Positions 17,138 through 64,000 of a DNA stretch of 64,000 bases are shown one piece after another. The notes beneath the pieces were generated by a model. That model searched no databases. It worked only from the letters and a program-made list of their open reading frames with translations, and was not told the origin of the DNA. Positions within the stretch are counted from its first letter, which is position 1, and the number at the start of each line of letters is the position of its first letter. The position numbers and the translations under genes were made by a program. The DNA lies in contig OZ231126.1 of NCBI GenBank assembly GCA_965153355.1, positions 7,502,001 through 7,566,000 on the forward strand, in the 5' to 3' direction. The stretch is from Flaccisagitta enflata. Lineage: Eukaryota.

Positions 17138-17351
17138 CTTCATTCATTTATCTTATTCATCTATCTATTCATTCATTCATTCATTTATTCATTCATTCAT
17201 TCATTCATTCATTTATTCATTCATTCATTCATTCATTCATTCATTCACTCTTTTATTCATTTATTCACTTATGTATTTATTCATTCATCAATTCATTCAT
17301 TTCTAATTCATTCATTCATTCATTCATTCATTCATTCATTCATTCATTCAT
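17138..17351 (+). repeat. (CATT)n microsatellite abutting truncated element A
   Basis: Direct reading; last units overlap the ATT CAT codons of integrase. Confidence 0.95.
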
Positions 17352-19028
17352 GGTCTTGGCCACCCTGGAGTCGAGAGGACGAAACAGTCCATTACTGACA
17401 AGTTTGTTTGGCCTAATGTGAAGCAGGACGTTTGTAAGTGGGCACGGGAATGCATCCCCTGTCAACAGGCCAAGATTCAACGTCATGTTGTGCCTCCCAT
17501 CGCTGAGTTTCAAGTCCCACCAAAGCGTTTTCAACACATTCATTTGGACTTGGTCTCAATGCCTCCGTCAAATGGCCATGACCATCTTCTCACCGTCGTG
17601 GACCGTTTTTCAAGATGGCCAGCAGCCTTCCCCATCCCCAACATAAATGCAGAGACAGTGATAGACACCCTCGCCCATGGATGGATTTCAGTCTATGGAG
17701 TGCCTGAAGTCATCACTACTGACCGTGGGAGTCAGTTTTCTTCGCAAGTTTTTACTCAGTTGCTGAAGACATGGGGCATCCGTCATATCATGACAACAGC
17801 TTACCACCCGGAAGCCAATGGGATGGTGGAGCGACTCCATCGTCGCCTAAAGGAAAGTTTGATCGCCCTTGGCAGAGGCGAAAGACTCCAGTGGTTTTGG
17901 AAGCTGCCCATGACGCTTCTCGCCCTACGCACAACCATCAAACCGGATATAGGAGCATCTCCTTCGGACCTGGTCTTTGGCGAGGGCATAACAGTTCCAG
18001 GCCAGCTAATCGGCCCACCAAATCTAAGTGATGAGGAACTACTTCGTCAGCAGCGTTCTACTCTCAGCAACATCAGACTAGAAGTTGAAAGACTACAACC
18101 AACTCCCACTTCCGCTCACCGAAATCCTCAGGTCAACATCCCCGATGACTTATCAACAGCCACCCATGTACTCGTCAGAAAAGGGGTTCAACCATCGTTG
18201 ACAGCGCCTTATGAAGGACCCTATGAGGTGGTCTCTCGTCACCCAAATGGTTTCAGGCTTCGTTTGCCTGGAAGAGGTACTGATATAGTAGCTCTCGCTC
18301 GTCTCAAACCTGCAATTGTCGCACCGGAAGATCAACGTGATGAGGACGTGGATAATGACGTCACGCCACCGTCTCCACCTCCTCCTGGTCGTCCACCTGG
18401 CATCAGGACCAGGCAGCCCGCGCCAACAACGCGTCAGACGCGCAGCAGCACGCAGCAGCAGCAGCAGCCTCGTCAGCAGCAGCAGCAGCAGCAGCAGCGG
18501 CAGCCTCAACAGCAGCAGCCTCGACAGCAGCAACAGCCACAGCCAGGGTTGACTCATGAGCCCAACAATAGCTCAGCTCCAGCTTCGCAGACTCCGTGCT
18601 CCAGCAGGGATGTCCCTGGAGAACCTCTACCAGACTCACCTCCTCCTCCTTCTCTTCCTCCTCGTCGTCCTCGACGACAACCGCAACGAGAAGATCCGCC
18701 TCCAATCGACCCGTCAGGCAGGGTAGACGTGCCTGATGACCCGAACTTATCCACCTGCCCAGACCTGGTGGGAGAGCAAATCATTGCTGATGCGTTTCCA
18801 CACCTTCCGGACCCTCTCAGCCGCGATCCAAACGATGTGGACCAGCCATTGGTCCCTCCTCGCGAACCGTCCAATCAGGAGCCTCAGTCAGACTCTCAGC
18901 GTCAAGGGGGCGCATCAAGGCAAAGGGTACTTTCATTCTCAAAACCTAAAAAGGGCAATTTTTCCTACAGACGTCGTAGGCCTGACATCAACGCATTGAA
19001 AGCAATCCTAGCAGATGTGGCTAGCTAA
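17346..19028 (+). pseudogene. pol: Truncated pol of element A: integrase (HHCC remnant, DDE core, GPY/F) plus Pro/Gln-rich tail
   Basis: ORF track 17418..19028 extends upstream in frame to 17346; motifs HLDLV, TTDRGSQF, NGMVERLHR, PYEGPY; no gag, PR, RT or RNase H. Confidence 0.9.
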
Positions 19029-19249
19029 TTATGTGTCTCTTACTTTAGCGTTTACTTTTACTCTCACTTTCGTTAGTGTCAACTCTATTCCGTCGTGTGG
19101 TCAGGGCACAATAAACCTGGTTCATTTGCATAATGTAGTGCATCAGAGGACGCAACCTCTTTAAAAAAAGTTTTTTCGTCACTTTATATCATGTTCACTC
19201 ACGTCTTTCGTAGACTGCTCCCGCTTACCCGTACACAGTCTAGGGGGCG

Positions 19250-20653
19250 TGTGGCTCTCGGTAGTATGTTTACTTTTTGTTATAAAAAATAATACTCACC
19301 TTGCCTTTTGTTCGTGTCCTTATATGGTGGCATACCTTATATAGGTGTCAACAATCTCATTTGCATATTAGCGTCAGTTTATGTCTCATCATGTCAGTCA
19401 CCTCATTCCCTACCCCATGATGTAACTCCCATGTCCGTAACGTCTATGGTTCATGAGTTATGGTGTAATAACATATGGTACCTCATTTACATATTATGGT
19501 CTCGTTACATTTGCTATTTAAATTTCTCACTCGGTCTGATTTCAAATCTGGCGTCCATTTTGCTCTAGGAGCTATGGTGTAAAAGATAGCAGACCGATGG
19601 GGTTATGTTCTCAAGCCTATGAGCGGCCAGTCCCATGGGGGTGGGCCTCATTGGATTGGGCCTGCATATTGTGGCGAGGATAATGAGCTTTGTGATGGCT
19701 TTGCACGCCCATTATCTCCTATCAACAGTATCTCAAAATAAGGGGTCAGGTTTAACCCCCTATACAAATGTTTCATCCTGATGGCCGATCCAGATCATTT
19801 TTATAGAGGTGAAAAGCCTCTGCAGTCCCCGGATTCGATCCTTGGACCTTTGGATCCAAGGTTCTCTCCCTTACCAGTCTCGCCACGGCGGCTGCAAGGA
19901 TTAACCTGCCAAAGCCTAAGGTGGTTCTTCCCCTCTTTGTTTTCTGCTTTGTTTTCCCCTTAATTTTCCTAAGTATGAGTGATTACATACTGTGCCCACA
20001 CTTAGCCTTATCCGATTACTATGATATTTGGTACATGCATAGATTAGCCTTAGAGAAAATGATTGGCGTTTTTGGTTTCCTCATTTTCGGCCAGGCTTAG
20101 CGACCCTGCCCAAATAACTTCTTTAGAAATTATCTCTATCTCTAACTTTTGCTTAATTAACTTATTCAAGCCTTTTGTTTGCTTCTACTTTAACAGAAGG
20201 ATTTGCCTTCTTGAATTTTGGATTAAGATGTTCATTTGTCATCAGGTCAGGTGACCTTCCCTCGTCCCCTCCGTGGTCACATGACCTTCCCAAGATGGCT
20301 GCCGCCATGGCAGGCAGCATGGCCAGATTGCTTACCTGTGGAATCTGTTTCGTTTATTCTGGTTCTTGTTTCTTAGCCAGAAAGGCTATAGTTTTCTCTC
20401 CTCGATTTTATTGCTATAAATAAAAGGCCTAAGGGTCTTACATTGAACTTGTGTTTTTATTTATGCTTGGGTGATTAGCCCAAAGCCAATAAGTACCCTC
20501 AAGGGTACCGAAGGACTTGAGGCTCCTGCCTCTGACCCTGTCCTTTGTGTTAAGACTTGTGTTTCGATGGTAAATAAGCTTTGTGCTTTAAAGCATGTTG
20601 TAAAGACATTAAATAACATTGGAGTCAATTTAACTGCTATTTACCTCGCTACA
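19250..20653 (+). repeat. 3' LTR of element A (1404 bp)
   Basis: Follows PPT, TG..CA ends, blocks homologous to the D/E and F LTRs. Confidence 0.9.
19821..19896 (-). ncRNA. tRNA-like module in the A LTR
   Basis: Homologous to 60227-60303; A box TGGCGAGACTGG, B-box variant GGATCGAATCC, T4 a few nt downstream. Confidence 0.5.
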
Positions 20654-20692
20654 GGGTTAGGGTTAGGGTTAGGGTTAGGGTTAGGGTTAGGG

Positions 20693-20723
<31 letters not shown>

Positions 20724-21091
20724 AGGTTGAGGAAGTAGAGGTGAAAGAGGCTGTGCCAGGCCAGGCCAGGCCAGGGCAGTGTTGTGCCAGGCTAGGCCAG
20801 GCTGGTTGTGCTAGGCCAGTTGTGCTGTGTGCTAGGCCAGGTTGTGCTGTGTTGTGCAGTGCCAGGCCAGCTGTGCCAGGCTTGTGCTGTGGTGCCAGGG
20901 TTGTACAGGCCAGTTGTGCAGGGCTAGCTTGGGTTGTGCTGGTTGTGTTGTGTTGTGTTGTGTTGTGTTGAGGTTGTGCTGTGTTGTGTTGTGTTGTGGT
21001 TAGGCTGGCCAGTTGTGGTTAGGTTGGCTTGGTTGTGGGGCTAGGCTAGGTTAGGAAGGGTTAGGGTTAGGGTTAGGGTTAGGGTTAGGGT
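20654..21091 (+). repeat. Telomeric (TTAGGG)n tract 1 with degenerate centre
   Basis: Perfect TTAGGG at both edges; CCAGG/CTAGG/TTGTG-like centre. Confidence 0.9.
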
Positions 21092-21589
21092 TGTAGATAA
21101 CTAAGTTATCGGAGAGACTAGTCTGCTCTATGTATAAAAGCATAGGAGACAATACAAGAAGCTTGTAACCCTTCACACGAAATTGTGGTCAACCACTACA
21201 CAAGTAACCAGGTAGAACAAGACTGAGGAAGGAGGGTAAGCCTCCTTCTTTTAAGGGGATCCAGGGACAGGAAGTGGATCCTGATTGGCTGACCGATTTA
21301 TGAAAAAGGGTCCTTCAATCCTGTTCTAGAATATTCCAAAAGAGGATTGAAGGCGGCTAAATCTACTGCCAAATGAGGCGCTCTCATTGGCCAGAATAGT
21401 TAAGAGAAAGGCAGCTTCAATCCGCCTCGCGAACGGATGTAATAATCCTGTAACACTTTAACATGAAGAAGCTGTTACAACACAAAGTAAGAGTAAGGTC
21501 CTAAAAGCTAAACGCTGAATCTAGTGTCTTCTACTAAGCTGGTCCCTAAGGATTGCCAGCAATAATCCTACAGGCCTTGGGAGGCCACA
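21092..21589 (-). repeat. 3' LTR of element B (498 bp)
   Basis: Direct repeat of 28501-28998; adjacent to PPT. Confidence 0.96.
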
Positions 21590-21783
21590 CGCCCCCCAGA
21601 TCGTACGTAATCGGAGTAAGGAATAAACGTAAACGAGAATTGCGTCGATCTATCGCAATGGAACGGATGAATGCTATATACAAGATTTCGAAGTGAGGTT
21701 ACGTAAAAACTTAGTACACGTCGGAATAAAAAGATGTAAAAATGTAAAAACGGAGTTACATTAAAGGCATTAACGAAAACACG

Positions 21784-24700
21784 CTACGAATTTAAGTGTT
21801 CGTGAATCAAATTAAAAAGGGCGTTAACATCTGGTCTTCTTCTTTGGTACGAAAAGTTCCCAGGTTTCGGCTTGGAGAATGACAGGATTCGTTTCCGGGA
21901 TGGAGGAGGGTTTGTCGTTTTGTCGGGGAGAGGTTCAGTTTGGTTCGGTCGTTGCTTCGAGAATTTTCGTTCGTTCTCTTTCGTGAAGAAGCGCGTAGGA
22001 CCGGAGTTGCATGGAGCTTTGGGATCGTCTGGGGGCTCGCATTGGCAAGGCGCCAGGTTTGTGTCGGAAGGAGTGTGACCGTCGAACGGGTCATTAGACT
22101 CGTCGGGGGTAGACGGAGGCGATGGTGCGCTCGAAGGGTTCGGTGTGGTGTCTGATTCTTGTGCGACGGTTGGAGTCCGGAGCCTTCTCAGCCTACGGAG
22201 GTGTTCATCCTCTGAGTCGGTATCGACGGGGTTGGATCGGTTCTTGGCTTGAGCTGATGTTCCTTCGCCCGGATCAAAGTTGAGTGGGTCGGGGTCGCGA
22301 ACGTCGGCTCCACTTTGTTGACGGGTGACGCGAGTTGTAGTATCCGGCTGCCTCGTTCGAGGTCCTGGTCTTCGACCGGGAGGTGGAGGAGAGGGAGGAA
22401 TTTGATCGTCGAGATCGTCGGAATTTTGTGTTGAGTCTGAGTTGTCGGCGTAAGCCGGCTTCACCCGTGCGAGAGCGATTTCTTCGATGCCGCGACCTGG
22501 CAAGTGGACCTTGACGCCGGTTTGCGTGCGCGATTCGACGCGGTAGGGTCCAACATATGGTTGTGTCAACGGCGGTTGTACGCCCCCCCGGCGTATCATG
22601 ACGTGAGTCGCATTCTGTAAATCGTCGGGAATGTGGACGTCGGGGATGCGATGAGCGGAGGTCTGGGTTGGTTGAAGTCGTTCGACTTCAAGGCGGAGGC
22701 CGGCCAGTGCGTTTTGCCGTTGTTGATTTGTGTTTTGGCCGTTTGAGAAACTCGGGAGGAGATCACCGGGCACTGCGATGCCTTCTCCGTAGACAAGGTC
22801 GGAAGGTGAGGCGCCAATGTCCGGCTTGAGTGTCGTCCTAAGTGAGAGGAGAGCCATTGGTAGCTTCCAAAACCAGCGGCTGGTGTCATCGTCGCAGAGT
22901 GCCATGAGGGACTCTTTGAGCCTCCGGTGAAGACGTTCTACCATACCGTTGGCTTCCGGATGGTAGGCCGTTGTAGTGTTGTGGCGAATACCCCACGTTT
23001 CGAGGAGTTGCGTCCAAACCGCGGAGGTAAATTGGCTTCCGCGGTCAGTAGTTATTGTTTCTGGGACGCCAAAGGACGCGACCCATCCGTGAGCGAACGC
23101 GTTGATGACTGATTCTGTCGTGATGTCTTTGAGGGGGAACGCGGCGGGCCATCTCGAAAATCGGTCGATCATTGTGAGGAGATAGCGGTGGCCGTCCGAT
23201 TCCGGCATCATCGTTATGTCGGCGTGCACGTGCGAAAAGCGGCGATTCGGGACGACGAATTCGTGGATTGGCGGTACGGTATTGCGGCCGACTTTGGAAC
23301 GTTGGCAGTGGAGGCAATTGCGGGCCCAACGTGAGACGTCGGAGCGGAGGGATGGCCAGACGAATTTGTTCCGGACCATTTGCCTTGTGCGTTCGATACC
23401 TGGGTGTCCCAGGCCGTGAATGGAGTCGAAAACGCGTTGACGCCAGGAGAAGGGCACGAAGGGCCGCGCCGGTCCGTTGGAAACGTCAACGAAGAGGTCG
23501 AAATTCCCAATGGGGATCTTTCGAAGCGTAAGTCCCGAGTTTGGGTCGTTGGAGAGTCGACGAAAATCTGCGTCAAGTGGTTGGTCGCGCGCCATTTCGG
23601 CGAAGTCGATGCCAAGCGCGGAGATTGAATTGATCGTCGTGCTCAATTCTTCGATTTTGGTTTCGTTGACTGGTTTGTTGATAGAGCAGATAGGTGTTTT
23701 GTCGGCATTTGACGTCGTTGCTTTGAGGCTGTCGAGGATGCAGTTGCCGACGCAATTAATGCTACCAGCTTTGATGCAGTTGATTGCCGTAATAAACACG
23801 TGTTCCTCATCCTCGCCGTTAGGTCGGGAGAGGGCATCTGCGACTACATTTGCTTTTCCGCGCAGATAACGGATATCCGTTGTGAATTCCGCTATGTTGG
23901 ACAACTGATAAGTTTGACGCGCGGTGTGGGGTTCCGACTTCTTTGATAAGGCCGGGATGAGCGACTGGTGGTCCGTATACAACGTAAAGTTGCGGCCCTC
24001 TAGGAGGTGTCGGAAGTGGCGGATGGAGCGATGGGCGGCCAGCAGCTCGCGGTCAAATGGGGGCCATTCGCGTTGAGTTCCTTTTAGCCGTGCGCTGAAG
24101 AATGCGAGCGGTTCCCATCCTGTTGGTCCTCGTTGTTCGAGAACTCCGCCCATGGCAATCTTTGATGCGTCGGTTGTAAGCGCGAGTGGCGCGTTAGGGC
24201 GGGGGTGATGTAGAAGTGCGGCCTTGGCGAGAGCTTCTTTGATCGCTTGGAACGAAGTTTCGCAGCCGGCTGTCCAATCGAGCTTTCTGGGTTTCCCTTC
24301 CAGGGCGCCGTAGAGATTGTCGAGATGTTCGGTGGCGTGGCGGATGTTTCGCCGGTAGTAACCCACCATGCCCAAGAACCGTTGGAGCTCTTTGACGGTG
24401 GTGGGAGCCTTAGTCGCGCGGATTGCTTCGACTTTGTCGGGTAGCGGTACGATGCCGTTTTGGTCGACGTGGAAGCCGAGGAAGTCAAGCTCGCTAACGC
24501 CGAGGACGCATTTTGCGCGGTTTACGACCAGTCCGTTTTCGGCGAGGAGGTTGAAGATTTGTTTGAGGTGGGACATATGCTCTTCCGGCGAGTTTGAAAA
24601 TACCAGAATGTCGTCCAAATAGACGAAACAGAAGGGCAAATCTCCCAGGATCGCGTCCATCATGCGTTGGAAGTCTTGACCCGCGTTTTTTAGCCCAAAA

Positions 24701-25713
24701 GGGCATCGCGGGAAAATGAAGAGTCCAAAGGGTGTAATGACGGCAGTTTTTCCTATGTCTGCCTCGGCCACCGGTATTTGGTGGTACCCTTTCAATAGAT
24801 CGACTTTTGAAAAGACCGTTTTGCCGTGAAGATTGGTGGTGAAGTCCGTTAGTGACTTTACCGGGTACTTGTCGTCTATTGTGGCATTGTTGAGTCGGCG
24901 ATAGTCGCCGCAAACTCTCCATCCTCCGCATGGGAAGTTTGCGGCGCACGAGCAAGGAGAGCTGCAAGGTTTTTGAGCGACCATGAGAGGGGACGCCCAT
25001 TCGCTTTTGCCCCGGTAACAAACTCCTAGATCGACGAGTTTTTGAAATTCCTTTCGGGCGATCTCGAGTTTTTCCGGATTTAGTTTGCGCGCTTTTGATT
25101 GAATTGGGTGACAATTTGTAGGAATGTGGTGCTTGACACCGTGGGAGACGTCTTTTGGGGTGAACGACGGTGTAGAAAGCGTGGGGTAGCTGTCCAGAAG
25201 TTGATAAAAGGGGTCGGCCTTTTGGTCGACGAGGTTTATGTTGGTAACCCGATTGGGTTGATTATTGCAGCGGTCGCCCACGGGTATTTCGGACCAGTCG
25301 TTAAGGTCAATGAGGCAACGATCGCGATGGTTCGGAGCAAGATAAAAACGATTTAGGAAGTCGGCTCCTAAAATCGGTTGACGGACATCGGCTATGATGA
25401 ACGTGAAGTCGAACTCGCGATCGTCTATACAGACTTGGCGGTCTGTAAGGCCGTAACAAGGGATGTCAGACCCATTAGCTGCTTGGAGTTTCCAGGCGTT
25501 GGGTCCTGATGCGCGTTGTTGAGGGGTGGGAGGCACAATCGACCATAGGGCGCCGCCGTCGATTAGCCATCGAGTCTTGTCATTTGAGTCTTCGGCGTAG
25601 AGAAGGTGATTGCCGCCTTTTATGTCGCGGGGGAGTGCGGCGTTTACTTCTGCCCCGCTTTGCCGTTTCCCGCAAATCGTTTTTCGTCGAAGCGGGAGCA
25701 CCCAACGTCGCAT
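21784..25713 (-). CDS. pol: Pol of element B (PR-RT-RNase H-IN), probably entered by -1 frameshift at 25665-25671
   Basis: LIDGGA, ILGADFL, YLDD, TDASK, TDHQSL, VADALSR, HGLGH..CLHC, TTDRGSQF, PYVGPY in Gypsy order. Confidence 0.96.
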   Translation of the reverse strand: MRRWVLPLRRKTICGKRQSGAEVNAALPRDIKGGNHLLYAEDSNDKTRWLIDGGALWSIVPPTPQQRASGPNAWKLQAANGSDIPCYGLTDRQVCIDDREFDFTFIIADVRQPILGADFLNRFYLAPNHRDRCLIDLNDWSEIPVGDRCNNQPNRVTNINLVDQKADPFYQLLDSYPTLSTPSFTPKDVSHGVKHHIPTNCHPIQSKARKLNPEKLEIARKEFQKLVDLGVCYRGKSEWASPLMVAQKPCSSPCSCAANFPCGGWRVCGDYRRLNNATIDDKYPVKSLTDFTTNLHGKTVFSKVDLLKGYHQIPVAEADIGKTAVITPFGLFIFPRCPFGLKNAGQDFQRMMDAILGDLPFCFVYLDDILVFSNSPEEHMSHLKQIFNLLAENGLVVNRAKCVLGVSELDFLGFHVDQNGIVPLPDKVEAIRATKAPTTVKELQRFLGMVGYYRRNIRHATEHLDNLYGALEGKPRKLDWTAGCETSFQAIKEALAKAALLHHPRPNAPLALTTDASKIAMGGVLEQRGPTGWEPLAFFSARLKGTQREWPPFDRELLAAHRSIRHFRHLLEGRNFTLYTDHQSLIPALSKKSEPHTARQTYQLSNIAEFTTDIRYLRGKANVVADALSRPNGEDEEHVFITAINCIKAGSINCVGNCILDSLKATTSNADKTPICSINKPVNETKIEELSTTINSISALGIDFAEMARDQPLDADFRRLSNDPNSGLTLRKIPIGNFDLFVDVSNGPARPFVPFSWRQRVFDSIHGLGHPGIERTRQMVRNKFVWPSLRSDVSRWARNCLHCQRSKVGRNTVPPIHEFVVPNRRFSHVHADITMMPESDGHRYLLTMIDRFSRWPAAFPLKDITTESVINAFAHGWVASFGVPETITTDRGSQFTSAVWTQLLETWGIRHNTTTAYHPEANGMVERLHRRLKESLMALCDDDTSRWFWKLPMALLSLRTTLKPDIGASPSDLVYGEGIAVPGDLLPSFSNGQNTNQQRQNALAGLRLEVERLQPTQTSAHRIPDVHIPDDLQNATHVMIRRGGVQPPLTQPYVGPYRVESRTQTGVKVHLPGRGIEEIALARVKPAYADNSDSTQNSDDLDDQIPPSPPPPGRRPGPRTRQPDTTTRVTRQQSGADVRDPDPLNFDPGEGTSAQAKNRSNPVDTDSEDEHLRRLRRLRTPTVAQESDTTPNPSSAPSPPSTPDESNDPFDGHTPSDTNLAPCQCEPPDDPKAPCNSGPTRFFTKENERKFSKQRPNQTEPLPDKTTNPPPSRKRILSFSKPKPGNFSYQRRRPDVNALFNLIHEHLNS

Positions 25714-28500: not shown

Positions 28501-28998
28501 TGTAGATAACTAAGTTATCGGAGAGACTAGTCTGCTCTATGTATAAAAGCATAGGAGACAATACAAGAAGCTTGTAACCCTTCACACGAAATTGTGGTCA
28601 ACCACTACACAAGTAACCAGGTAGAACAAGACTGAGGAAGGAGGGTAAGCCTCCTTCTTTTAAGGGGATCCAGGGACAGGAAGTGGATCCTGATTGGCTG
28701 ACCGATTTATGAAAAAGGGTCCTTCAATCCTGTTCTAGAATATTCCAAAAGAGGATTGAAGGCGGCTAAATCTACTGCCAAATGAGGCGCTCTCATTGGC
28801 CAGAATAGTTAAGAGAAAGGCAGCTTCAATCCGCCTCGCGAACGGATGTAATAATCCTGTAACACTTTAACATGAAGAAGCTGTTACAACACAAAGTAAG
28901 AGTAAGGTCCTAAAAGCTAAACGCTGAATCTAGTGTCTTCTACTAAGCTGGTCCCTAAGGATTGCCAGCAATAATCCTACAGGCCTTGGGAGGCCACA
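28501..28998 (-). repeat. 5' LTR of element B (498 bp)
   Basis: Followed on the minus strand by PBS; direct repeat of 21092-21589. Confidence 0.96.
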
Positions 28999-29010
28999 CG
29001 CCCCCCAGAT

Positions 29011-29206
29011 TAGGTTAGGGTAGGTTAGGTTGGGTTAGGGTTAGGAGGTTAGGTTGTTAGGGTTAGAGTGAGGTTAGAGGTTAGTTGTAGGTTAGGTTAA
29101 GGTGGCGGGTTGTTAGGCTAGGGCAGGCAGTTGGTTAGGGGCTAGGGTTAGTTGGGTTAGGTTAGGTAGGAAAAGCAGGTTGGCTTGGAGGGTTAGGGTT
29201 AGGAGG

Positions 29207-29239
<33 letters not shown>

Positions 29240-29258
29240 GTTGGGTTAGGGTTAGGGT
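29011..29258 (+). repeat. Telomeric tract 2 (largely degenerate TTAGG/TTAGGG)
   Basis: G/T-rich TTAGG(G) variants, near-perfect at the right edge. Confidence 0.88.
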
Positions 29259-30126: not shown

Positions 30127-30129
30127 AAT

Positions 30130-30141
30130 TGGTGACTCCCG
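30130..30141 (+). promoter_or_regulatory. Primer-binding site, tRNA-Trp-like (also 40460, 50733, 61073 and 28488-28499 on -)
   Basis: TGGTGA(CT/G)CCCG 1-3 nt after each 5' LTR; resembles the tRNA-Trp PBS TGGTGACCCCGAC. Confidence 0.8.
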
Positions 30142-38021: not shown

Positions 38022-38032
38022 TCTAGGGGGCG
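38022..38032 (+). promoter_or_regulatory. Polypurine tract TCT(A/G)GGGGGCG (also 19239, 47894, 58169 and 21590-21600 on -)
   Basis: Conserved 11-mer abutting every 3' LTR. Confidence 0.88.
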
Positions 38033-46994: not shown

Positions 46995-47038
<44 letters not shown>

Positions 47039-49212: not shown

Positions 49213-49235
49213 AATTGGTGACTCCCGTCTCAAAG

Positions 49236-53407: not shown

Positions 53408-56400
53408 ACGCGGCCACCCCCTCCTCTTCATCATCATCAAAAAATGATTTATTATTCGTTCACGACGTCACTACGCGCCAGAAATGGTTAATAGATGGGG
53501 GCGCTGTCCTATCCATCGTCCCTCCCACATACGCTCAACGTTTAAATGGCCATTCAAATATGCAGCTGCAGGCTGCAAACGGCTCGAGGATCAAGTGCTT
53601 TGGAGTTAGGCAGATGCCAATACACCTGCCAGGGCGAAAATTCTCTTTTCCAGTGACGATTGCAGACGTCAAACAGCCAATCCTAGGGGCTGATTTTTTG
53701 GCTAAAAATTACTTGGCCCCAAACCATAGGGATGGTACCCTAATCGACCTCAAAGACATGTCGACTATCAAAGTGGATTTTGAAGATAAGGCTGAGCCTA
53801 TACGCGTGAACCACGTCAGTCAGGCGACAAACCCTTACTACAAGCTCCTGGATGGAAAATTCCCGGACCTTTCCAATCCCACTTTCAAGGTCAAAGACGT
53901 CGACCACGGGGTTTATCATTATATACCCACAGAAGGCCCCCCAGTGCAAGCAAGGGCCCGTAAACTGGACCCAGAAAAGTTAGCTGTGGCCAAGGCTGAA
54001 CTGGATAAGTTGGTTGAATTGGGAGTTTGCGAGAGGGGCAAATCAGATTGGTCCTCACCCCTACTCGTCACAACAAAGCCTTGTAATTCGCCCTGCACTT
54101 GCGAACAAGAAAAACCTTGTGGCGGATGGCGGGTCTGTGGAGACTATCGAAGGCTCAATGACCTTACCACAGACGACCGCTACCCTGTAAGAAACTTACA
54201 AGATTTCAACGCTGATCTTAGAGGCAAAACAATTTTTAGCAAAGTGGATTTGTTAAAAGGGTATCATCAAATCCCTGTATACCCTGATCATGTGAAAAAA
54301 ACTGCCGTCATAACGCCATTTGGCCTCTACCTCTTTCCACGCTGCCCCTTTGGCCTTAAAAATGCTGGCCAGGATTTCCAGCGACTCATGGACAAGATCC
54401 TCGGCGACATACCTCACACTTTCGTCTATTTGGACGATATTTTAATTGCCTCATCATCACCAGCTGAGCACCTCGAGGACCTCACGCGCGTCTTCACCAT
54501 CCTGGAAGAGAATGGTCTTGTCGTAAATCGCAAGAAGTGCATTCTTGGTGAAAGTTCCATCGAGTTTTTAGGCCACCTTTGCGACGCCCACGGCATCAAG
54601 CCATTGCCATGTAAAGTAGAGGCCATCAAAAAAGTTCAGCCACCAACAACAATTAAAGAATTGCAGCGTTTCTTGGGCATGATTAATTATTATCGCCGTT
54701 TTATAAAATCTGCCGCCCACCACCTCTACCACCTCTTCGACGCCCTCGGCTCCAAGCCAAAGCGCCTTCTATGGTCAACAGAGATGCAGGCCTCATTCGA
54801 GGCCATCAAGAACGCCCTCGCGAATGCAACAATGTTACACCATCCGGACTCGTCTCTTCCACTGGCTCTTACTACAGATGCCTCAGATGTAGCCATTGGA
54901 GCTGTTCTGGAGCAAAGAGGCCCCAACGGATGGGAACCTCTGGCGTTCTTTTCCAAAAAATTGTCGGATTCTCAGCAGAAATGGTGCCCCTACGACCGTG
55001 AACTGCATGCTGTGCACAAGGCAGTCCGCCATTTTAAGTACATGGTCGAGGGAAGAGCCTTCACGATCTATACAGATCACCAGAGTTTGGTGCCTTCGAT
55101 GTCAAAGAAGACTGAGGCCCAAACAGCTCGCCAAGCCAATCAACTTTCCGAAATTAGCGAGTATTCTACTGACATACGCTATTTAGAGGGCAAGAGTAAC
55201 GTTGTGGCTGACGCCCTCTCGAGGCCTAATGGTAAGCAAGAACCTCCTACAGTCAGCAACATCTCGCCAACTTATTCCTCCATGCCCCAACATGTTTTCT
55301 GTCAAGACATCAACCGCATGAGAGACGAAGGAATTCTGGGAATTCATCAAGTTGGTTATGAAGAAGAGGAAGATGATGAACCTGAAGTCGAAGAGTATAG
55401 ACCAGAGGAAGATGAAGAGATCGAGGAAGAATGGGAAACAGAGGCAAACTCTGACTTCTTTGACGAAATGGAAGTGAGGTACAATAAGCTCAAAGCTTGT
55501 TCTCGTCAACCAACACCCTCAGGGGCTCTCACTCCGTCTCCTTCTTCCAACACTGCTTCCTCTGCAACTTCGTCGTCAACACCCTCAGTGGCTCTCACTC
55601 CGCCTTCTTCTTCCAACACTGCTCCCTCTGCAACTCCGTCATCAACACCCTCAGTGGCTCTCCCTCCGTCGCCTTCTTCTAACTCAGCTTTCTCTGCAAC
55701 CTCGTCAACTCCAGCAAAAAGCAACCCGGCTAAGCAGGTCTCATTTGCACCAATCATCTCGTCAGTCTCTCGACCTCCAGAGTCTCCTTCAATGAACAAC
55801 GACGAGTGGCTTCAACATCTTGAAAGAATCTGCAGCCAGGGACAACCACCTCAGCCTTCACCTCCACCAACGCAGCAACAGTCCTCTCCTCCAATCCCTA
55901 AAGGTTATAAACCAGTTCCAGAGGAAAAGATTGAGGATCTTCAACTGCTGGTCAATTCAGTCAGCCACTTTGCCATCGATTTGGAAGACATGGCGCGCCA
56001 ACAGGCTTTAGACCCAGAGCTGAGAACGCTGAGAAGAGACGCAAGAACTGGACTCAGTTTCAGAAAGGTTAAGGTTGGGGCAACATACTTGTTTGTGGAC
56101 GTTTCGAATGGCCCTGCCCGCCCCTTCGTGCCACTGTCTTATCGCCGAAGGATATTTAATGTTATCCACAATTTGGGGCATCCAGGAGTCGAAAGGACTC
56201 GCCAAACCATAACTGACAAATTCGTTTGGCCTAATATTAGGCAGGACGTGTGCAAGTGGGCACGAGAGTGTGTGGCCTGCCAACAGGCCAAAATTCAACG
56301 CCATGTGGTACCACCCATAGCAGAATTCTCCGTCCCACCAAAACGCTTTCAACATATCCACCTGGATTTGGTGTCCATGCCTCCATCCAATGGCTTTGAC

Positions 56401-57269
56401 CACTTGTTAACTATTGTGGACCGCTTCTCAAGGTGGCCAGCAGCCATACCCATCGCCAACATCAGCGCTGAGACGGTCATAGATGCATTGACACATGGAT
56501 GGATTGCAAACTACGGCGTCCCTGAAGTGATAACTACGGACCGAGGCAGCCAATTTTCAGCTCAAATTTTCACCCAGCTTCTCGAAAATTGGGGCATTCG
56601 CCACATCGCCACAACAGCTTATCATCCGGAATCAAACGGAATGGTGGAGCGCCTACATCGTCGCCTCAAGGAGAGCCTAATTGCTTTGGGCAGGGGAGAA
56701 AGGCTTCTTTGGTTTTGGAAACTGCCCATGTCATTACTGGCGCTAAGGACAACAATGAAGCCTGACTTAGGTTCCTCCCCAGCTGAACTTGTGTATGGAG
56801 AAGGCCTCACTGTGCCTGGCCAACTGATTGGGCCACCAAACCTTTCGGATGAAGAGCTTCTTCAGCAACAGCGAGCGACTCGAAACAACCTAAGGGTTGA
56901 AGTAGAACGTCTGCAGCCAACTGCAACATCAGCCCATCGTGCTCCTAGGGTTAACATACCGGACGAACTCGCCACTGCAACACACGTGTTAGTAAGAAAA
57001 GGTTTGCAGCAATCGCTTACAGCACCGTATGAAGGCCCTTTCGAGGTAGTCTCCAGACATGCGAATGGTTTCCGCCTACGCTTCCCAGGCAGGGGCACGG
57101 ACATAGTCGCCCTGTCAAGACTAAAGCCAGCAATCATCGCACCGGAAGAAGAACGTGATGAGGAGGATCATAATGATGTCACACCGCCATCTCCACCTCC
57201 TCCAGGTCGCCCTCCTGGTGTAAGAACGCGTCTTCCGGCTCCAACTTCCCGTCAGACACGCAGCTCGAC

Positions 57270-57313
<44 letters not shown>

Positions 57314-57825
57314 TCCGTCAGCAACAGCAGCAACAGCAGCAACAACAGTCGTCGACTCATGAGCCCAACAGCAGCTCGGGTGACTCGCAGATCCCGTGCT
57401 CTTCTCGCAGCGTTCCTGGAGAGCCCATTCCGGACTCACCACCTCCTCCTCCTCCTCCTTGTCGTCGTCAACGTCAGCGTCAACGTGACCCATCGCCGGA
57501 GCAACTGACAGACCCGACAGGCAGAGTCGAGTACCAGGACGATCCCAACCTCGCTCCATGCCCAACTCCTCAACAGGAACAGGCCTTAGCAGAGGCTTTT
57601 CCACATCAACCGGACCCGCTCAATCGTGATCCAAGAGACTTGGACCAGCCCTTGGTCCCTCCTACGCCATCCAACTCTACTGCCAACGATGGTAACGCTC
57701 AAGGGGGCGTCAACAGGAAGAAAAAGACACTCTCATTTTCAAATCCAAAGAAGGGCCACTTCTCGTACCGTAGGCCCCGTCCTGACATAAACTTCCTTCG
57801 CCAAGTCATGAACGAGCTCAATTAA
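53338..57825 (+). CDS. pol: Pol of element E, -1 frameshift entry near 53377
   Basis: 1495 aa; the only difference from D that I spotted is EEDNND versus EEDHND. Confidence 0.97.
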
Positions 57826-58179
57826 TGTAGGTCACATTTTTACATTACTCTTTATTTAACAATTCCGTGGTAATAGCGTCATCTATCTTCCTTCTCGAGT
57901 GACAGTACAGTTGCTCTTTTGTTCTCTGATTAGTAGCGTCATCTATCTCATTTTTCTTTGTAGTAGCGTCATGTTACTTTCACTGAGTGACAGTACAGTC
58001 CCTCAACTTCGTCGAGTGGTCAGGGCACTATAAACCTGGTAGGCCTTATATTTTACTTGCGTAGTATCGCAGAGGACGCAACCTCTATAAAAAAAGAATA
58101 CTAACCGTCATATCATGTTCACTCACGTCTTTTGTTTAGATTGTTTCCGTTCGCAACCCCGTACACAATCTAGGGGGCG

Positions 58180-59487
58180 TGTGGCCATTGGCCTAAGTAT
58201 GGTCTCTTAAACTCATTTGCATATAGTCGTCATGTTATGTCTCATCATGTCACTCGCCTCATATCCTTTCCAATGATGTAACTCTCATGTCTATGGTGTC
58301 AGCGGTTCATGAGTTATGGCCCATCAATGGTTGACATCTCATTTACATATTGTGGCATCGTTACATTTCGTTATTAATAATTTCACTCGGTCTGATTCTG
58401 AATTTGATGTCTGTTTTTGTCTATCTGCTTCCTGTCAAAAGATAGCAGACCGATGGGGAAATGTTTTCAGCCTATGAGCGGCCAGTCCCTTGGGGGTGGG
58501 CCTCATTGGATATGCCTTGCATATTGTGGCGACGTTAATGAGCTTAGAGATGGCTTTACTCCTCTCATTAACTCCTTACAGCTTACTACAAAATATAGGG
58601 CCCAGGCACAAGCCCTATACATATTTACCTTCCTGATGGCCGATCCAGTCTATGTTTATAGAGCTGATAAGCTCTGCAGGCACCTGGATTCGATCCCTGG
58701 ACCTTTGGATCCAGAGCTCTCTCCCTTACCAATGTCGCCACGGCGGCTGCATGGATAGAGCCGCCAAAGCTTAGGGTGGTTCTCCCTTTCTCTGTTTTCC
58801 TTTGTTTCTCCTCCCTGTTTCTTCTAAGTTTTCCTCATTACATACTGTGCCCATAGTTGTGCTTATGCTATCGCCATGAAATTTTATGTGTATGTAGTAT
58901 GATGTTAGAGAAAAGGTTTGGCGTCTCTTGTTTCATGATTTTATGGACAGGCTTAGTGCCCCTGCCCTTTAACTTCTTTTAGAATTATCTCTATCTCTCA
59001 CTTTTGCTTAATTAAGTATTCAAGCCTTTTGTTTGCTTGTCTTTTGATAGAAGGATTTGCCTTCTCTTATTTTGGGTTCAATTGATCATTTGTCATCAGG
59101 TCATGTGATGTCCCCTCGTCCCCTCCTGGTCACATGACCCTCCCAAAATGGCTGCCGCCATGGCAGGCAGCATGGCCAGACTGTTTAGCTGTGGGAAATA
59201 ATTCTATCATTCTGGTTCTTGTTTTTTAGTCTGGATAGACTATAGTCTTCGCTCCTGTTTTTATTTTATTGCTTGAATAAATAACTTTGTATCTGAATAA
59301 GACTTTGTGCTATTATTAAAAGGGCTAGCAGCCCTCTAACTCTGCGAGTACCCCTGTGGGGTACCTATGGACTTGTGGCTACGCCACTGACCCTGTCCAT
59401 AGTCTTATGGATTGCCAAAAGACTCAAAGGCATTAATATCGCAATGGTAGACTTTGGAGTCATCTACCACTTTTGGGAATCGCTACA
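58180..59487 (+). repeat. 3' LTR of element E (1308 bp)
   Basis: After PPT; ends GCTACA|GGGTTAG. Confidence 0.95.
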
Positions 59488-59688
59488 GGGTTAGGGTTAG
59501 GGTTAGGGTTAGGGTTAGGGTTAGGGTTAGGGTTAGGGTTAGGGTTAGGGTTAGGGTTAGGGTTAGGGTTAGGGTTAGGGTTAGGGTTAGGGTTAGGGTT
59601 AGGAGGGTTAGGGTTAGGGTTAGGGGGTTAGGGTTAGGGTTAGGGTTAGGGTTAGGGTTAGGGTTAGGGTTAGGGTTAGGGTTAGGGT
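59488..59688 (+). repeat. Telomeric tract 5, almost perfect (TTAGGG)n
   Basis: About 33 units with two small interruptions. Confidence 0.96.
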
Positions 59689-61069
59689 TGTAGCTCTCAT
59701 GCGTCTCCTGCCTTTATTCCTGCCCAGTAGCCTTATGATAGCTGTTTACTTATATGTCCTTTAATCTCATTTGCATATTGAGGTAGCTTTTGTGTTTATT
59801 GTTTCCGTCTCGTCATGGGCTTTCACATGGTGTAAGTATCATCACCATAGGTTATGTGGTTCATGAGTTATGGCACTTTTTCTATTGTGCCTCATTTGCA
59901 TATTGCTGTCGTATGTTTTATTATTTAGCAAAATAAATTGTACACCCGTACGTATAGTAGAAATTGGATATCTGTTACGGTTGCTTAGATATGGGCATTT
60001 TTGTATTTCACCATGCTTTCCTATGGGGCGGCTTGTCCAATGGTGGTGAGCCTCATCGGATATCACCGCATATTGTGGCGACCTTAATGAGGCCTCAGAT
60101 GTCTTGCTGGGAGCCTCATTCATCCTATTTCTCTCATTTTAAAATAAAGGGTTCAGTATTAACCCCTTTACATATGTCCCTTCCAGGCGGTAGTTCCGGT
60201 CTGTTTTTATAGTGGTGATCACCCACTGCAACTGCCTGGATTTGAACCCTGGACCTTTGGATCCGAGGTCAAGTCCCTTACCCATGTCGCCACGGCGGCT
60301 GCATGGACTTACCTCCCAAAGCTTAGGGTGGTTTCTCCTTTGCCCTTACCTTTAAGCTCACTGCTTAGGATTTTCCTAAGTCCGGTCTGTTTTATAGTGA
60401 GCACCTACTTGTAGTTATGCTAGAGCTATAAAACTTTACACACTGATAGAGTTATTGATAAGAAAATGTTTGGCGTTTTTAGATTTCTCATTTTTGGTCA
60501 GGCTCACTGGCCCTGCCCTTTTTCGTTTGTGTTGGATTATCTCTATCTCTCAATTTTGCTTAATTTATGCAAAGAGGCCAATTGTTTTCTCCCCTTAGCT
60601 TTGTCCTCTCGTTTTAGGATTGACCTGTTCTTTTGTCACCAAGGTCACATGTGTCACAGGTTCCTCCCCTTGGTCTCTTCCTCTTCAAAGATGGCTGCCG
60701 CCATGGCACCAGCTTTTACTCAGACTGTTAACCTTTGAAATCGTTTCCTTTCAGTCTGGTTCTTCGATTTTAGGCTCAAGCCTATGTTTTGTGCTCCTGT
60801 TTTTATTGATGTTTTAATAAAAGGCTAAGGCCTTGTGATCAAACTTGTGTGCATTATTGCATGGGTGATAACCCCAGCATAATAAGTACCCTAAGGGTAC
60901 CCATGGACTTGAGGCCCCTGCCTCTGACCCTGTCCATGGACTGCAGACTATGATATAAGGCTAAAGCCTTAATAACTTGTTACTGTGGCATTTGCCTATC
61001 AATGTGATAACTGTAAAGACATTATTAAGACTTGTATGGAGTCCAAGTCGGTCGGATGTCACAGCTACA
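59689..61069 (+). repeat. 5' LTR of element F (1381 bp)
   Basis: 7-bp terminal inverted repeat, PBS downstream, blocks shared with A and D LTRs. Confidence 0.9.
60227..60303 (-). ncRNA. tRNA-Arg-like Pol III module (A box TGGCGACATGG, B box GGTTCAAATCC) antisense in the F LTR
   Basis: Minus strand GCCGCCGTGGCGACATGGGTAAGGGACTTGACCTCGGATCCAAAGGTCCAGGGTTCAAATCCAGGCAGTTGCA is 73 nt and collinear with a eukaryotic tRNA-Arg(TCG) as I recall it; stems are imperfect. Confidence 0.6.
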
Positions 61070-61769
61070 AATTGGTGAGCCCGACTTAAGAACTCACCCT
61101 ACCAACCTTCTACCGGAAGTGGCGCCAAAATCACGGGACAACGACGTCGACAACCTGCTGCAGCAGCATCATTTTCACTGCCACAACTTGTGTACAGACA
61201 GAGACAACATTGCCTTTGTGTTTTCATCACCACCTCGTCGACATCGTCTCCAGCATCTCGTTTCCGTGGTTAACAGCACGTGGTCACGCCAACAACGTCG
61301 TCCACGCCATCAGCATCGCCTCCAAAGCTTCCAATTCGAGTCAACACAGTCGCCAACAACCCAAGAGGAGTCCCTCGTCTTGGCCTCTTAGAGGGGCCGA
61401 CTTGGGCGACCATTGGACCCGCCAGGCGCCGTGGAGATCGGCCAGAAAGGGGGTCTGGTGCAGGAGCACCTACCCTACCCATAGGGTGAGCCAGACAGAG
61501 AGTGTAGTAATCAATAACTATCACTTTCCATCCCCCCTGACCGACTCGACAGACAACAGATTCAGTTGTTTCTTTGTTATTCATGCTTTTGCTTCCCATC
61601 ATTTTCCCGCATGTACCCACGTCCTGACGCCCTTCAACGCTGCCATTCGACTCGGGGACACCTGGTACGAGTCAGTCACGTCCACGACTTCACTCTCGAC
61701 CTCTCACGACGTCCACAGACGCCCAACACCCCGTGGTCGACTTCAGTTTGAATCTGCAACAACAGGCGG

Positions 61770-62460
61770 CCAAAGGTTCGACAGGACGCCACAACAACAA
61801 CGTCTCACGGCCAAACGGTTGGCAGCACGATCAACCAACGCAGCAGTCACGTCAACGGGATCCCCGGGCACGTCACTGCACCGTCCATTCGTCGCTGCAC
61901 GCGCCCAACAGCTCGTCAACAGCATCCGCATCGGGTACGCGACGAACCGCCGCCGTCATTAACTTTAACAACGTCTCACAGCCAAACGGTGGACAGCACG
62001 ATCAACCAACGCGGGTAACACGTAGTCCTCAACCTCGGGTACACGACCATATCCAACAATCACCCCTCACGACCTCCAACGGGCCGTCAACTGCTTCCTT
62101 CTCGGCGACGTCGACGAACCTCCGCCGCCGCGTTTTCAAACGTTCACCAACGCCAAAGTACGACCCTCAGCATCGTGAAACTTTTATGGAAGGTACTTCT
62201 GATAGTGTTCTACAACATTCAATCTCGATAGCAGCTATTTTTAATCGTCAAGCAGCTTTACTAGTCGACGAAAGATCGTCCTCGACGAACCGCCGCCGAC
62301 GCCATCTTGTAATCGTTCTCGAATCGCCAAATCTTGCTCTATCGACTTCAGCTCGGAGTTAGTAGTCCCTCACATCGTGCTTTACCTTCCCAACAACCGG
62401 CATCACTTAATTCCTTCGCCAAGTGGCTCGTCCGCGCATCCGAATCACACTAAACCGCGA
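61770..62460 (+). repeat. ~171-bp periodic degenerate repeat in the leader of element F
   Basis: CGTCTCAC.GCCAAACGGT at 61801 and 61972; GACGAACC at 61941, 62113 and 62284; boundaries approximate. Confidence 0.7.
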
Positions 62461-62915
62461 CCGTCGATTACTACTACTTTAACATCGAATTGACGGCGTC
62501 TCGCGCATCTAACGACCACCATCTCCGGGAATCAGCATCAGCAAAGTCTAAATTACCTTCCCAACGATCGACAGCACTCAGCTCCTCCGCCAAGCAGCCC
62601 GTCGAGGTCCTCAAACAGCATCTCTACGCGACCGAAGCTTATTTCAACTTTAACATCAACTTGACGATCTACTGCTCATTCTACAGTCGCCAATCGACTT
62701 CAGCAGCCCCCAAGGACTTCAGTCCACGCATTCCAACCCTCGTCATCGCGTCAATTCGCTCTCCAGTCTCCCGTTGACGTCGTCTAACTTCATTACTGCA
62801 ACATAACTCAACAGCAAATTCACTCAAATGAGTTCCTCTCAAAAAAGTTGTGTGTAGCCAAAATACACATGTTTCTCAGCTTTCTCTCGTCACTCAGCAG
62901 CAATTATACTCACAG

Positions 62916-64000
62916 ATGAGTAAAACAAACGGCCAAGACGATCATCCACACGTCTCCTCCTTTGATCCATCCTTCCTGTCATCACCAGCTCGTCGTCGTT
63001 ACAGACCAGCATCCCCATTAGATGAAGACGAAGGACCAAGTAATCATTTCTCCTTTCAGTCCACCCAAGTGCCATCCTTGCTTGACATTGACGTCCGCAA
63101 CGGGGTCAGGTCTTACCCTGACCAAGCAACAGCACCAACTGCAGCATCAGCCCCAGCAACAGCCGACAGAATGAGTGCTGAAGAACAGTTGGCCAAGATG
63201 GCCGAGTTGCATTTGGCACAACAAAAACAGATGGATGCAGCCAATGTTTTCGCCAACAGACAAGCTGAGCAGCTACTGGAGTCGCAGAGGCAACTACAGC
63301 AGGCACAGGAGCATATCAAAAAGCTTTCAGATGCCTTTGAATCCCTGTCGACCCGGCAACAGCAGGAACCTCGACCACTCACTCTCACAACAGCTCCAAA
63401 GAAGAAGCCTGAACTGCCCCCCTTTGATAGAAAGAATATCCTGATTTGGATCCGAAGGGTACAAGCAGCATACCAGAGAGTAGGCGTTGTCGATTCCAAG
63501 GATAAGTTTGCTTGGTTAGAAAGCATGTTCCAGGTTGGACTGAATCCAACCATCGACGGCTACATGTATGGAACAAACACAGAAGTTGATTGGACCAACT
63601 TTTTGCAATACTTAAAAGATGAGTATGGTCCAACAAAAAGGCAGAAGGCTCAAAAGCTTATGAGTGATAATCCTCGCCATGATTTGAAGCCATCACAATT
63701 CCTTCAACAACTCCAAGAGGATACCAAGGATGCGACAGTCGACGACATCTTGAAGGAACATGTCCTCAAGACCATTCCTCCCCGGATCCGCGAGATAATG
63801 GGGAAAGAAGTAGAGCAGATGACTGCCAAGGAAGTAGCAAAAGCGGCTGATGATTTTTTCGATCGGCAGGGCAAGCCACTTGAGAAAGCAGTCAACCCTG
63901 TCAATCATGTTTCAAACTCCTCGTCCACTTCCTCCAACGCCGCATCCACGTCCGCCAGCGCCTCTCACTCCTCATCCTCATCCTCCTCGCACTTCACAGC
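62916..64000 (+). CDS. gag: Gag of element F (partial, open at the window end; not in the ORF track)
   Basis: Manual translation: MSKTNGQDDHPHVS..MSAEEQLAKM..KKKPELPPFDRKNILIWIRR..KDEYGPTKRQKAQKLM, homologous to C and D Gag. Confidence 0.92.
   Translation, partial: MSKTNGQDDHPHVSSFDPSFLSSPARRRYRPASPLDEDEGPSNHFSFQSTQVPSLLDIDVRNGVRSYPDQATAPTAASAPATADRMSAEEQLAKMAELHLAQQKQMDAANVFANRQAEQLLESQRQLQQAQEHIKKLSDAFESLSTRQQQEPRPLTLTTAPKKKPELPPFDRKNILIWIRRVQAAYQRVGVVDSKDKFAWLESMFQVGLNPTIDGYMYGTNTEVDWTNFLQYLKDEYGPTKRQKAQKLMSDNPRHDLKPSQFLQQLQEDTKDATVDDILKEHVLKTIPPRIREIMGKEVEQMTAKEVAKAADDFFDRQGKPLEKAVNPVNHVSNSSSTSSNAASTSASASHSSSSSSSHFT

Follow-up and report, generated by a model that had tools for sequence, protein, structure and literature searches.

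A Ty3/Gypsy retrotransposon array within TTAGGG tracts of Flaccisagitta enflata: candidate site-specific insertion of a CsRn1-like lineage into the telomeric repeat

Introduction

TRAS1 and SART1 are retrotransposons without long terminal repeats (non-LTR elements), either of which has one fixed orientation in its (TTAGG)n target and is copied there by target-primed reverse transcription with an AP-type (apurinic/apyrimidinic) endonuclease. Ty5 of Saccharomyces is an LTR element of the Ty1/copia type. Target-sequence-specific integration is described as a near-exclusive property of non-LTR elements (PMC3706591, 2013), and Ty5 and Ty1 are brought to chromosome ends regionally by protein tethers, with a short motif in the C-terminus of the Ty5 integrase binding the chromatin protein Sir4p; targeting in yeast is ascribed to protein contacts and not to the recognition of a DNA sequence (PMC4700185, 2016). 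In bdelloid rotifers, the LTR elements Juno and Vesta are low-copy residents of the chromosome ends (PMC2861651). Here we describe a 64-kb stretch of DNA from the genome of Flaccisagitta enflata (the window, a single locus chosen for the pattern in question), in which six LTR retrotransposons of the Ty3/Gypsy type are separated only by TTAGGG-type repeats and share one position of insertion in the repeat at all of their canonical junctions.

The features of these elements point to the CsRn1 clade of Ty3/Gypsy retrotransposons, whose described traits are a primer-binding site (PBS) for tRNA-Trp, a gag motif CX2HX9CX3C, a 4-bp target duplication, a GPY/F module, the absence of a chromodomain and of env, and several strategies of gag-pol expression, including -1 frameshifting; the duplication recorded for the member PwRn1 is GGCG and non-telomeric (PMC2582038). 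Full-text literature searches, with Repbase Reports and most subscription journals lying outside their range, turned up no earlier account of LTR retrotransposons that occupy one set position in a telomeric repeat. A report on the silkworm W chromosome (PMC13535481) was considered as a precedent and rejected: one passage in it calls TRAS1 a 'telomere-specific LTR-retrotransposon', yet lists the element as non-LTR, and the wording looks like a slip.

Results

Array and insertion sites

The array occupies positions 17347-64000 and, as judged from self-BLAST, open reading frames (ORFs) and the reading of boundaries, is composed of six Ty3/Gypsy LTR elements of five families, named A to F from left to right (Table 1). 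One of them is 5′-truncated (A), one is inverted (B, the other five pointing the same way), two are near-identical (D and E) and one is cut by the window end (F). They are parted by five TTAGGG-type tracts of 186-438 bp each (1,323 bp summed); (TTAGGG)3 matches the window 52 times, on the + strand only and always within 20657-59687, and 100 shuffles of the window gave 0 matches. The amino acid identities of the pol products (75% for A-D, 68% for A-C, 58-62% between B and the others, 80% for C-D) separate four families, with D and E (99.9%) representing one of them, and F, whose gag product is 60-68% identical to those of C and D, constitutes the fifth. None of the six copies is nested in another, and no element-related sequence is found in positions 1-17346 (0 matches in blastn, only microsatellite artefacts in tblastn).

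On the left side of B, C, D, E and F, the flank ends in TAGGGTTAGGGT in all five cases, i.e. at T1 of the repeat unit (…TTAGGGT/LTR, the slash marking the bond), and all three canonical right flanks, those of A, C and E, begin with GGGTTAGGGTTA at G4, the junction reading CA/GGGTTAGGG. The LTRs themselves start with TG (TA in C) and end with CA. C and E are surrounded by a 4-bp duplication of GGGT, and deletion of either element together with one GGGT leaves an unbroken repeat. The inverted element B enters the same bond from the opposite side, its own 3′ end reading …CTACA/ACCCTAA. These junctions suggest that the strand transfers took place after TA on each strand, 4 bp apart (TA/GGGT/TA). 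Both TA/GGGT/TA and its complement TA/ACCC/TA carry TA at the same symmetric positions, and this symmetry would account for the junction of the inverted B being the same as that of its neighbours; as every 6-bp unit offers one TA-N4-TA arrangement only, a single phase and an independence of orientation would follow.

With a random phase, four further left and three right junctions would agree with a probability of (1/6)^7, or ~4e-6; treating D and E as a single event gives ~2e-5. Sites of the type TANNNNTA are present 261 times in the window, 74 times within the tracts and 187 times outside, and not one of the six elements is located at an outside site; if sites were taken at random, five insertions would all fall into tracts with a chance of ~0.28^5 = 0.002. 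The same site is shared by five families which differ by 20-42% in pol.

A preliminary description of the locus had already proposed six elements of five families parted solely by telomeric tracts, without nesting and without any element in the left 17 kb, and this layout is borne out by self-BLAST, junction reads, pol and gag identities, and the searches of the flank. Its five proximal junctions at one repeat phase, including that of inverted B, and its distal junctions of A, C and E with a 4-bp GGGT duplication likewise hold (five of five and three of three, with GGGT flanking C and E). The right end of element A had to be corrected to 20653. The symmetry of the target at the TA steps, which would explain the junction of B, had escaped it, as had the non-canonical right ends of B and D, which leave two of the four complete elements with one end unlike an integrase product. 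Its broader interpretation, a recently active integrase-based lineage specialised for telomeric DNA that would build hybrid chromosome ends, is supported in part, by the single insertion phase, the GGGT duplication, the signs of recent activity and the CsRn1-like features at this locus.

Telomeric tracts

The TTAGGG content of the tracts climbs monotonically to the right, from 0.22 to 0.93 (Table 1), and this rising purity would be the polarity of a real telomere with its end, the presumed chromosome end, to the right. The degenerate cores of the tracts share the variant units GCCAGG, GCTAGG, GTTGTG and TTAGG, and perfect repeat is found beside both neighbouring elements, with a degenerate centre between. 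Perfect edges around a degenerate centre are consistent with insertion into perfect islands of an older, variant-rich tract and speak against an extension by telomerase from the previous element.

Table 1. Coordinates of the elements, their reading frames and the intervening tracts in the 64-kb window (PPT, polypurine tract)
Feature	Position	Strand	Remarks
(TTCA)n microsatellite	17139-17351	.	adjoins truncated 5′ edge of A; proximal array boundary
Element A	17347-20653	+	5′-truncated within integrase/pol; ORF to 19028; 3′ LTR 19250-20653; keeps integrase Zn finger, core, GPY/F module and tail; PPT block before 3′ LTR; ends CA/GGGTTAGGG
Tract A/B	20654-21091	+	TTAGGG content 0.22; perfect runs at both edges; GCCAGG, GCTAGG, GTTGTG mid-tract
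Element B	21092-29010	-	inverted; LTRs proper 21092-21589 and 28501-28998, identical; terminal repeats 510 bp, 100% identical (self-BLAST)
B pol	25722-21784	-	from ORF listing
B gag	26816-25644	-	from ORF listing
Tract B/C	29011-29258	+	TTAGGG content 0.27; mostly degenerate (TTAGG, TAGG and similar)
Element C	29259-38899	+	complete; LTRs 29259-30126 and 38033-38899, 868 bp, 99.77% identical; termini TA…CA; GGGT at both flanks; spacer AAT, then PBS TGGTGACTCCCG…
C gag	32170-33348	+	from ORF listing
C pol	33252-37733	+	from ORF listing
Tract C/D	38900-39147	+	TTAGGG content 0.36; perfect-degenerate-perfect
Element D	39148-49212	+	plus 21-23-nt PBS copy (feature to 49233); LTRs 39148-40456 and 47905-49212, ~1,308 bp
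D gag	41828-43132	+	from ORF listing
D pol	43063-47550	+	from ORF listing
D pol tail after GPY/F	46885-47547	+	disordered, conserved motifs; same tail in A, B, C, E; candidate targeting module
Tract D/E	49234-49421	+	TTAGGG content 0.39
Element E	49422-59487	+	family of D; LTRs 49422-50729 and 58180-59487; GGGT on both sides
E gag	52103-53407	+	from ORF listing
E pol	53338-57825	+	from ORF listing
Tract E/F	59488-59688	+	TTAGGG content 0.93; nearly pure
Element F	59689-64000	+	cut by window end; LTR 59689-61069; canonical left junction; spacer AAT, PBS at 61073; gag ORF from 62832, open to window end

Integrase tail

Past the GPY/F module, the pol products continue for ~220 residues with a tail carrying the motifs PPSPPPPGRPPG.RTR…, DPTGRV… and …FSNPK.GNFSYRRRRPD…. 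Several short motifs of the tail are near-invariant in 30 sequences of 39-79% identity, among them that of the inverted B, and in an AlphaFold model (mean predicted local distance difference test score, pLDDT, 62.1) the tail is disordered except for short helices, with only the beta module of GPY/F predicted confidently. In 71 fetched relative loci (1 from viral contigs, obtained with a single-protein query at 31% identity, and 70 from metagenome contigs, obtained with an alignment query), the integrase core was recognized in 35 and GPY/F in 18, and the tail in none; the proline-rich GRPPG motif was absent from all 71, and the rest of the tail was matched just twice, each time weakly and on the wrong strand. 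As far as these comparisons reach, the tail appears to be specific to the lineage. Because a conserved, disordered and lineage-specific tail resembles in form the tethering motif of Ty5, it is proposed by analogy for tethering, as a candidate targeting module. A Pfam match to TERB2 in the tail (E=4.9) was discarded as meaningless low-complexity noise. In D and E, the tail also contains a poly-Q run (46995-47066 and 57270-57341).

Coding capacity and affiliation

B, C, D and E have open frames for both gag and pol, and gag of F is open to the window end. As expected for Ty3/Gypsy elements, direct LTRs are combined with a PBS, beginning with TGGTGA… 1-3 nt past the LTR, and with a polypurine tract (PPT), the block …TCT(A/G)GGGGGCG preceding every 3′ LTR of A-E. 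The pol order is protease, reverse transcriptase, RNase H and integrase: Pfam returns RVT_1, RT_RNaseH, Integrase_H2C2 and rve in this succession for B, C and D, and H2C2 plus rve for A; the aspartyl protease is matched weakly in C (E=0.00036, 21.5 bits, under the curated cut-off of 28.2 bits), and pol of D has no Pfam match to this domain. The heptamer GGGAAAC lies in the gag-pol overlaps of C (heptamer at 33318-33324), D (at 43102-43108), E (at 53377-53383) and B (overlap 25644-25722, - strand); in D, read in the gag frame, it has the register X XXY YYZ, and it likely serves as a -1 frameshift site. ORFs in the leaders of C, E and F, 5′ of gag, are treated as non-coding, since they are not conserved between the families.

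The CHCC motif CX2HX9CX3C replaces CCHC and occurs once near the C-terminus in all four complete gag products (B, C, D and E), a count that leaves out F, whose gag runs past the end of the window, and A, which has none. The 4-bp GGGT duplication is found around C and E and is lacking in B and D; the GPY/F signature …APYEGPF/Y… falls into the confidently folded beta module of the predicted structure; neither a chromodomain nor env is matched in Pfam, and the stretch from pol to the 3′ LTR is free of ORFs. The PBSs begin with TGGTGAC or TGGTGAG, with C, D and E agreeing over the first 12 nt only; a tRNA-Trp type is a candidate assignment for them. By these features, the elements fit a CsRn1-like affiliation. 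The same affiliation had been given in the preliminary description and stands for the CHCC motif (four of four), the duplication, GPY/F and the lack of chromodomain and env, its Trp-like PBS being a candidate assignment.

Recent activity and relation of D and E

The two LTRs of an element differ at 0/510 positions in B, 2/868 in C, 11/1,308 in D and 24/1,308 in E, i.e. they are 98.2-100% identical, and these values, the open frames and the kept frameshift site together indicate recent activity, as had been claimed in the preliminary description. What had been overlooked is a mosaic relation between D and E, which makes LTR divergence a poor clock. The two elements are 98.3% identical over 10.4 kb, with one differing site in the 5′ LTR, 3.9% divergence in the leader, none in gag, 3.1% in the 3′ untranslated region and 2.1% in the 3′ LTR; the nine differences in pol are all located within 46284-46899, and 21 changes are private to the 3′ LTR of E, against 0 in its 5′ LTR. 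This alternation of blocks of 0% and 3-4% divergence along the length indicates gene conversion between neighbours or recombinant parents. A simple tandem duplication of D and E was rejected, because the flanking tracts differ and the PBS appendix is present in D only, and LTR divergence was set aside as unreliable for the order of insertion.

Further repeats were observed within the elements. Between the RNase H and integrase regions, the pol genes of D and E contain a coding 66-bp unit repeated in tandem (3.1 copies; 45228-45432 and 55503-55707), and in the leader of C a 171-bp unit is tandemly repeated (2.6 copies; 31089-31537). In the leader of B (27738-28404), the word depth reaches ~63,000 and ~57,500 in the sequencing runs compared, against hundreds in the remainder of B, depth not being equal to copy number; several run contigs jump by ~300 bases (28058 to 28358/9), and a 21-nt direct repeat is present at 28077 and 28362. 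It seems that a short, very high-copy repeat lies within the leader of B or is derived from it, a feature not noticed in the preliminary description, which had also read the start of the C LTR as TG instead of TA.

Non-canonical ends of B and D

At its own 5′ end, B carries a 12-nt exact copy of the PPT block outside the LTR (28999-29010), after which the repeat continues without a target duplication. The 3′ LTR of D is followed by a 3-nt spacer and an 18-nt PBS copy (49213-49233), identical to the sequence after its 5′ LTR; two more matching bases are perhaps part of the copy, and the repeat then proceeds out of the canonical phase. Because the lengths of these extras equal those of the replication primers, they are read as unremoved copies of the PPT or tRNA primer, and a retention of PBS or PPT is known from aberrant retroviral ends. 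Normal processing would not be open to an end of this kind. To judge from these ends, B and D were likely joined at one side by integrase at the usual bond and at the other by host repair. As an alternative for D, a tandem copy may have broken just past the PBS and been healed by telomerase.

Flank, relatives and read data

The 17-kb left flank contains no convincing ORF and is rich in very long microsatellites (3468-3829, 5358-6537, 8085-8419, 9371-10605 and 17139-17351) of the types (GAGG)n, ~1.2 kb of (CT)n-type, ~1.2 kb of (TGT)n and (TTCA)52, the last being located exactly at the truncation point of A. At 14941-15036, 2.3 kb left of the array, a short degenerate (CCCTAA)n-like tract is present on the + strand, opposite to the array; it holds the sole perfect-repeat 12-mer outside the five tracts and may be left over from an older end or have arisen by inversion or fusion. 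Neither Rfam families nor tRNA genes were matched when the window was scanned for them (0 hits each).

A search with pol returned 3,071 proteins at E<=0.001 among 8,000 candidates scored; among the matches listed (the best 120 of 3,071), identities are 58-85% and almost all come from ENA assemblies. Relatives in the thousands characterize the lineage as large and diverse. The loci L024, L034, L035, L015 and others, from freshwater and other metagenomes, have the same PBS type (TGGTGACC…), and in some relative loci the same PBS recurs at a distance of ~4.4-5.3 kb, pointing to circularly permuted assemblies with collapsed LTRs. A search of viral contigs for the junction pattern gave 0 matches and then one chance match in a giant-virus bin without an LTR element, and the ESM Atlas, queried with gag, returned only generic retrotransposon gag families.

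A search of sequencing runs gave 11 entries, with no RNA run among the matches listed; parts of the stretch occur in two runs that carry the same organism label and in several from marine metagenomes. In the region compared (20401-40400 minus repeat tracts), internal parts of B and C are nearly unchanged in the runs X1 and X2, which may be the source sample and are then not independent, and in the marine metagenome run X3 of another study; the internal part of C shows 0 differences over 1,890 bases in X1 and 5 over 1,941 bases in X3. The RNA run X10 yielded 0 reads on 20401-40400 from a sample of ~6% of the run, which is too little for a test.

Discussion

We consider it probable that, at this locus, a diversified CsRn1-like lineage has inserted site-specifically and by means of its integrase into telomeric repeats. 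The enzyme would act on double-stranded (TTAGGG)n at one position, with strand transfers after TA on each strand (TA/GGGT/TA) giving rise to the GGGT duplication and to the same junction in either orientation. Since TA-N4-TA alone is too common, either a recognition beyond this arrangement or an intasome tethered to a telomere-bound host protein would be needed, and the disordered integrase tail is a candidate for reading the repeat or for providing the tether. Repeated insertion into perfect-repeat islands may then have built a telomere/retrotransposon hybrid array with a purity rising toward the presumed end, in which B and D would have been completed abnormally, with one LTR end at the normal bond and the other, carrying PPT (B) or PBS (D), presumably joined by host repair. 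For the wider proposal, that these elements, a radiation of CsRn1-like type, are the first integrase-based LTR lineage to target the telomeric repeat with base precision, that the tail docks on telomere-bound protein or DNA, and that hybrid telomeres are the result, we see the arguments for and against as evenly balanced.

Several observations weigh against site-specific insertion. A single locus stands behind the site preference, and the statistics within the window are subject to ascertainment, as the window was picked for the pattern. B and D, half of the four complete elements (B, C, D and E), each have one non-canonical end without a duplication, a share unusually high for concerted integration. 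The independence of D and E is uncertain, their 5′ LTRs differing at 1 site from each other, compared with 11 (D) and 24 (E) sites between each 5′ LTR and its own 3′ LTR, and the truncation of A against non-telomeric DNA implies an array shaped by rearrangement. Neither Pfam searches at E<=5 nor the AlphaFold model gave a DNA-binding fold or a Pfam family for the tail, and (TTAGGG)2 was found in 0/71 relative loci, a weak point, as these contigs are internal or LTR-collapsed.

The elements might instead have only a weak preference for TA-N4-TA, comparable to the liking of many integrases for a weak palindrome, insert genome-wide and survive solely in gene-free subtelomeric or telomere-like DNA, with the phase as a by-product of a repeat that presents this site once in every unit. 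We regard this as unlikely, although a target symmetric at the TA steps only, the abundance of TANNNNTA with 261 sites in the window, and the non-telomeric GGCG duplication of PwRn1 (PMC2582038) would all suit it. Against it stand the 187 sites outside the tracts, none of which has been used (chance ~0.002), and a 17-kb flank free of element fragments; moreover, the identical LTRs of B and the 2/868 differences in C leave little time for selection to remove copies elsewhere.

In a second model, cDNAs (complementary DNAs) were joined serially to an eroded or uncapped end and then extended by telomerase, with CA/GGG reflecting template alignment. The continuation of …CA with GGGTTAGGG is indeed the addition expected of telomerase after A; ends with primer sequence and without duplication, as in B (PPT) and D (PBS), are what end-joining gives, and the orientation of the array, in which the + strand is the G-strand and the repeat becomes purer distally, points toward a chromosome end. 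End-joining, however, does not predict a proximal junction identical to the base in five of five cases, nor the inverted B at the same bond, and in this model whole tracts would be made anew and be oldest beside the preceding element, whereas each element has perfect repeats on its proximal side, the degenerate ones lying mid-tract. LTR divergence does not fall distally either (B 0, C 0.23%, D 0.84%, E 1.83%), an argument weakened by the D/E mosaic, and altogether we hold such end capture and healing to be quite improbable. Finally, an assembly artefact from mis-joined repeat-rich reads, or a segmental amplification by unequal exchange or break-induced replication between ends, would fit the mosaic 98.3% identity of D and E over 10.4 kb and the truncation of A against unique DNA, but is highly improbable, as the junction is common to five families whose LTRs are different, the five tracts are not alike in sequence or length, the PBS copy ends D and not E, the junctions are short-range and spanned by any single read, and duplication cannot bring unrelated LTRs into the same phase.

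If site-specific integration is correct, an LTR-element counterpart of the TRAS/SART elements of Bombyx would exist in the telomeres of a marine animal, based on a wholly different enzymology, and a DDE enzyme would have convergently acquired telomere targeting, placing elements of 8-10 kb at one bond of TTAGGG. LTR elements are otherwise known to reach chromosome ends only regionally via chromatin tethers, as in the case of Ty5 and Sir4p (PMC4700185). The array would then offer a natural model for an intasome that reads telomeric chromatin or is tethered to it, and, for animals that have kept the canonical repeat, a hybrid telomere of a second and independent type; the frequent half-canonical ends with kept PPT or PBS would constitute a natural record of failed or repaired integration in telomeric DNA.

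Among the known systems, the CsRn1 clade (CsRn1, PwRn1, AgCR, Kabuki and Boudicca) shares the gag motif CX2HX9CX3C, the 4-bp duplication, GPY/F, the lack of chromodomain and env and, in some members, the -1 frameshift predicted here. A telomeric target is not reported for this clade, PwRn1 being flanked by GGCG (PMC2582038), and the ~220-residue conserved integrase tail was not found in the relative loci fetched, which are 25-67% identical to pol of D. Ty3 of Saccharomyces also combines a Ty3/Gypsy integrase with near base-precise insertion via a tether (10.1101/2021.07.27.453949), but its target is the start region of transcription by RNA polymerase III, set by a bound factor, and not a tandem repeat. 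Among the elements of bdelloid rotifers, the Penelope-like Athena forms chains of retroelements with short telomeric stretches at chromosome ends, and Juno and Vesta are LTR elements of the same compartment; however, Athena attaches to ends without endonuclease and integrase, and Juno and Vesta are described as low-copy residents of the end regions, not at a fixed position of the repeat (PMC2861651). Ty5 is likewise an LTR element sent to chromosome ends, with the conserved integrase tail described here as a candidate counterpart of its tethering motif, but it lands regionally in silent chromatin and not at a fixed base of a repeat. With TRAS/SART, the array has in common the one fixed position in the telomeric repeat (five of five left and three of three canonical right junctions), the occupation of this niche by several families, and the arrays with intervening repeat tracts (PMC7265360; PMC10088271). 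The present elements differ in having LTRs, PBS, PPT, integrase and a 4-bp duplication, with one of the six inverted, and do not conform to an endonuclease-driven target-primed reverse transcription of fixed orientation. By analogy, the array resembles TRAS/SART in its outcome and probably Ty5 or Ty3 in its logic, while being a member of neither group.

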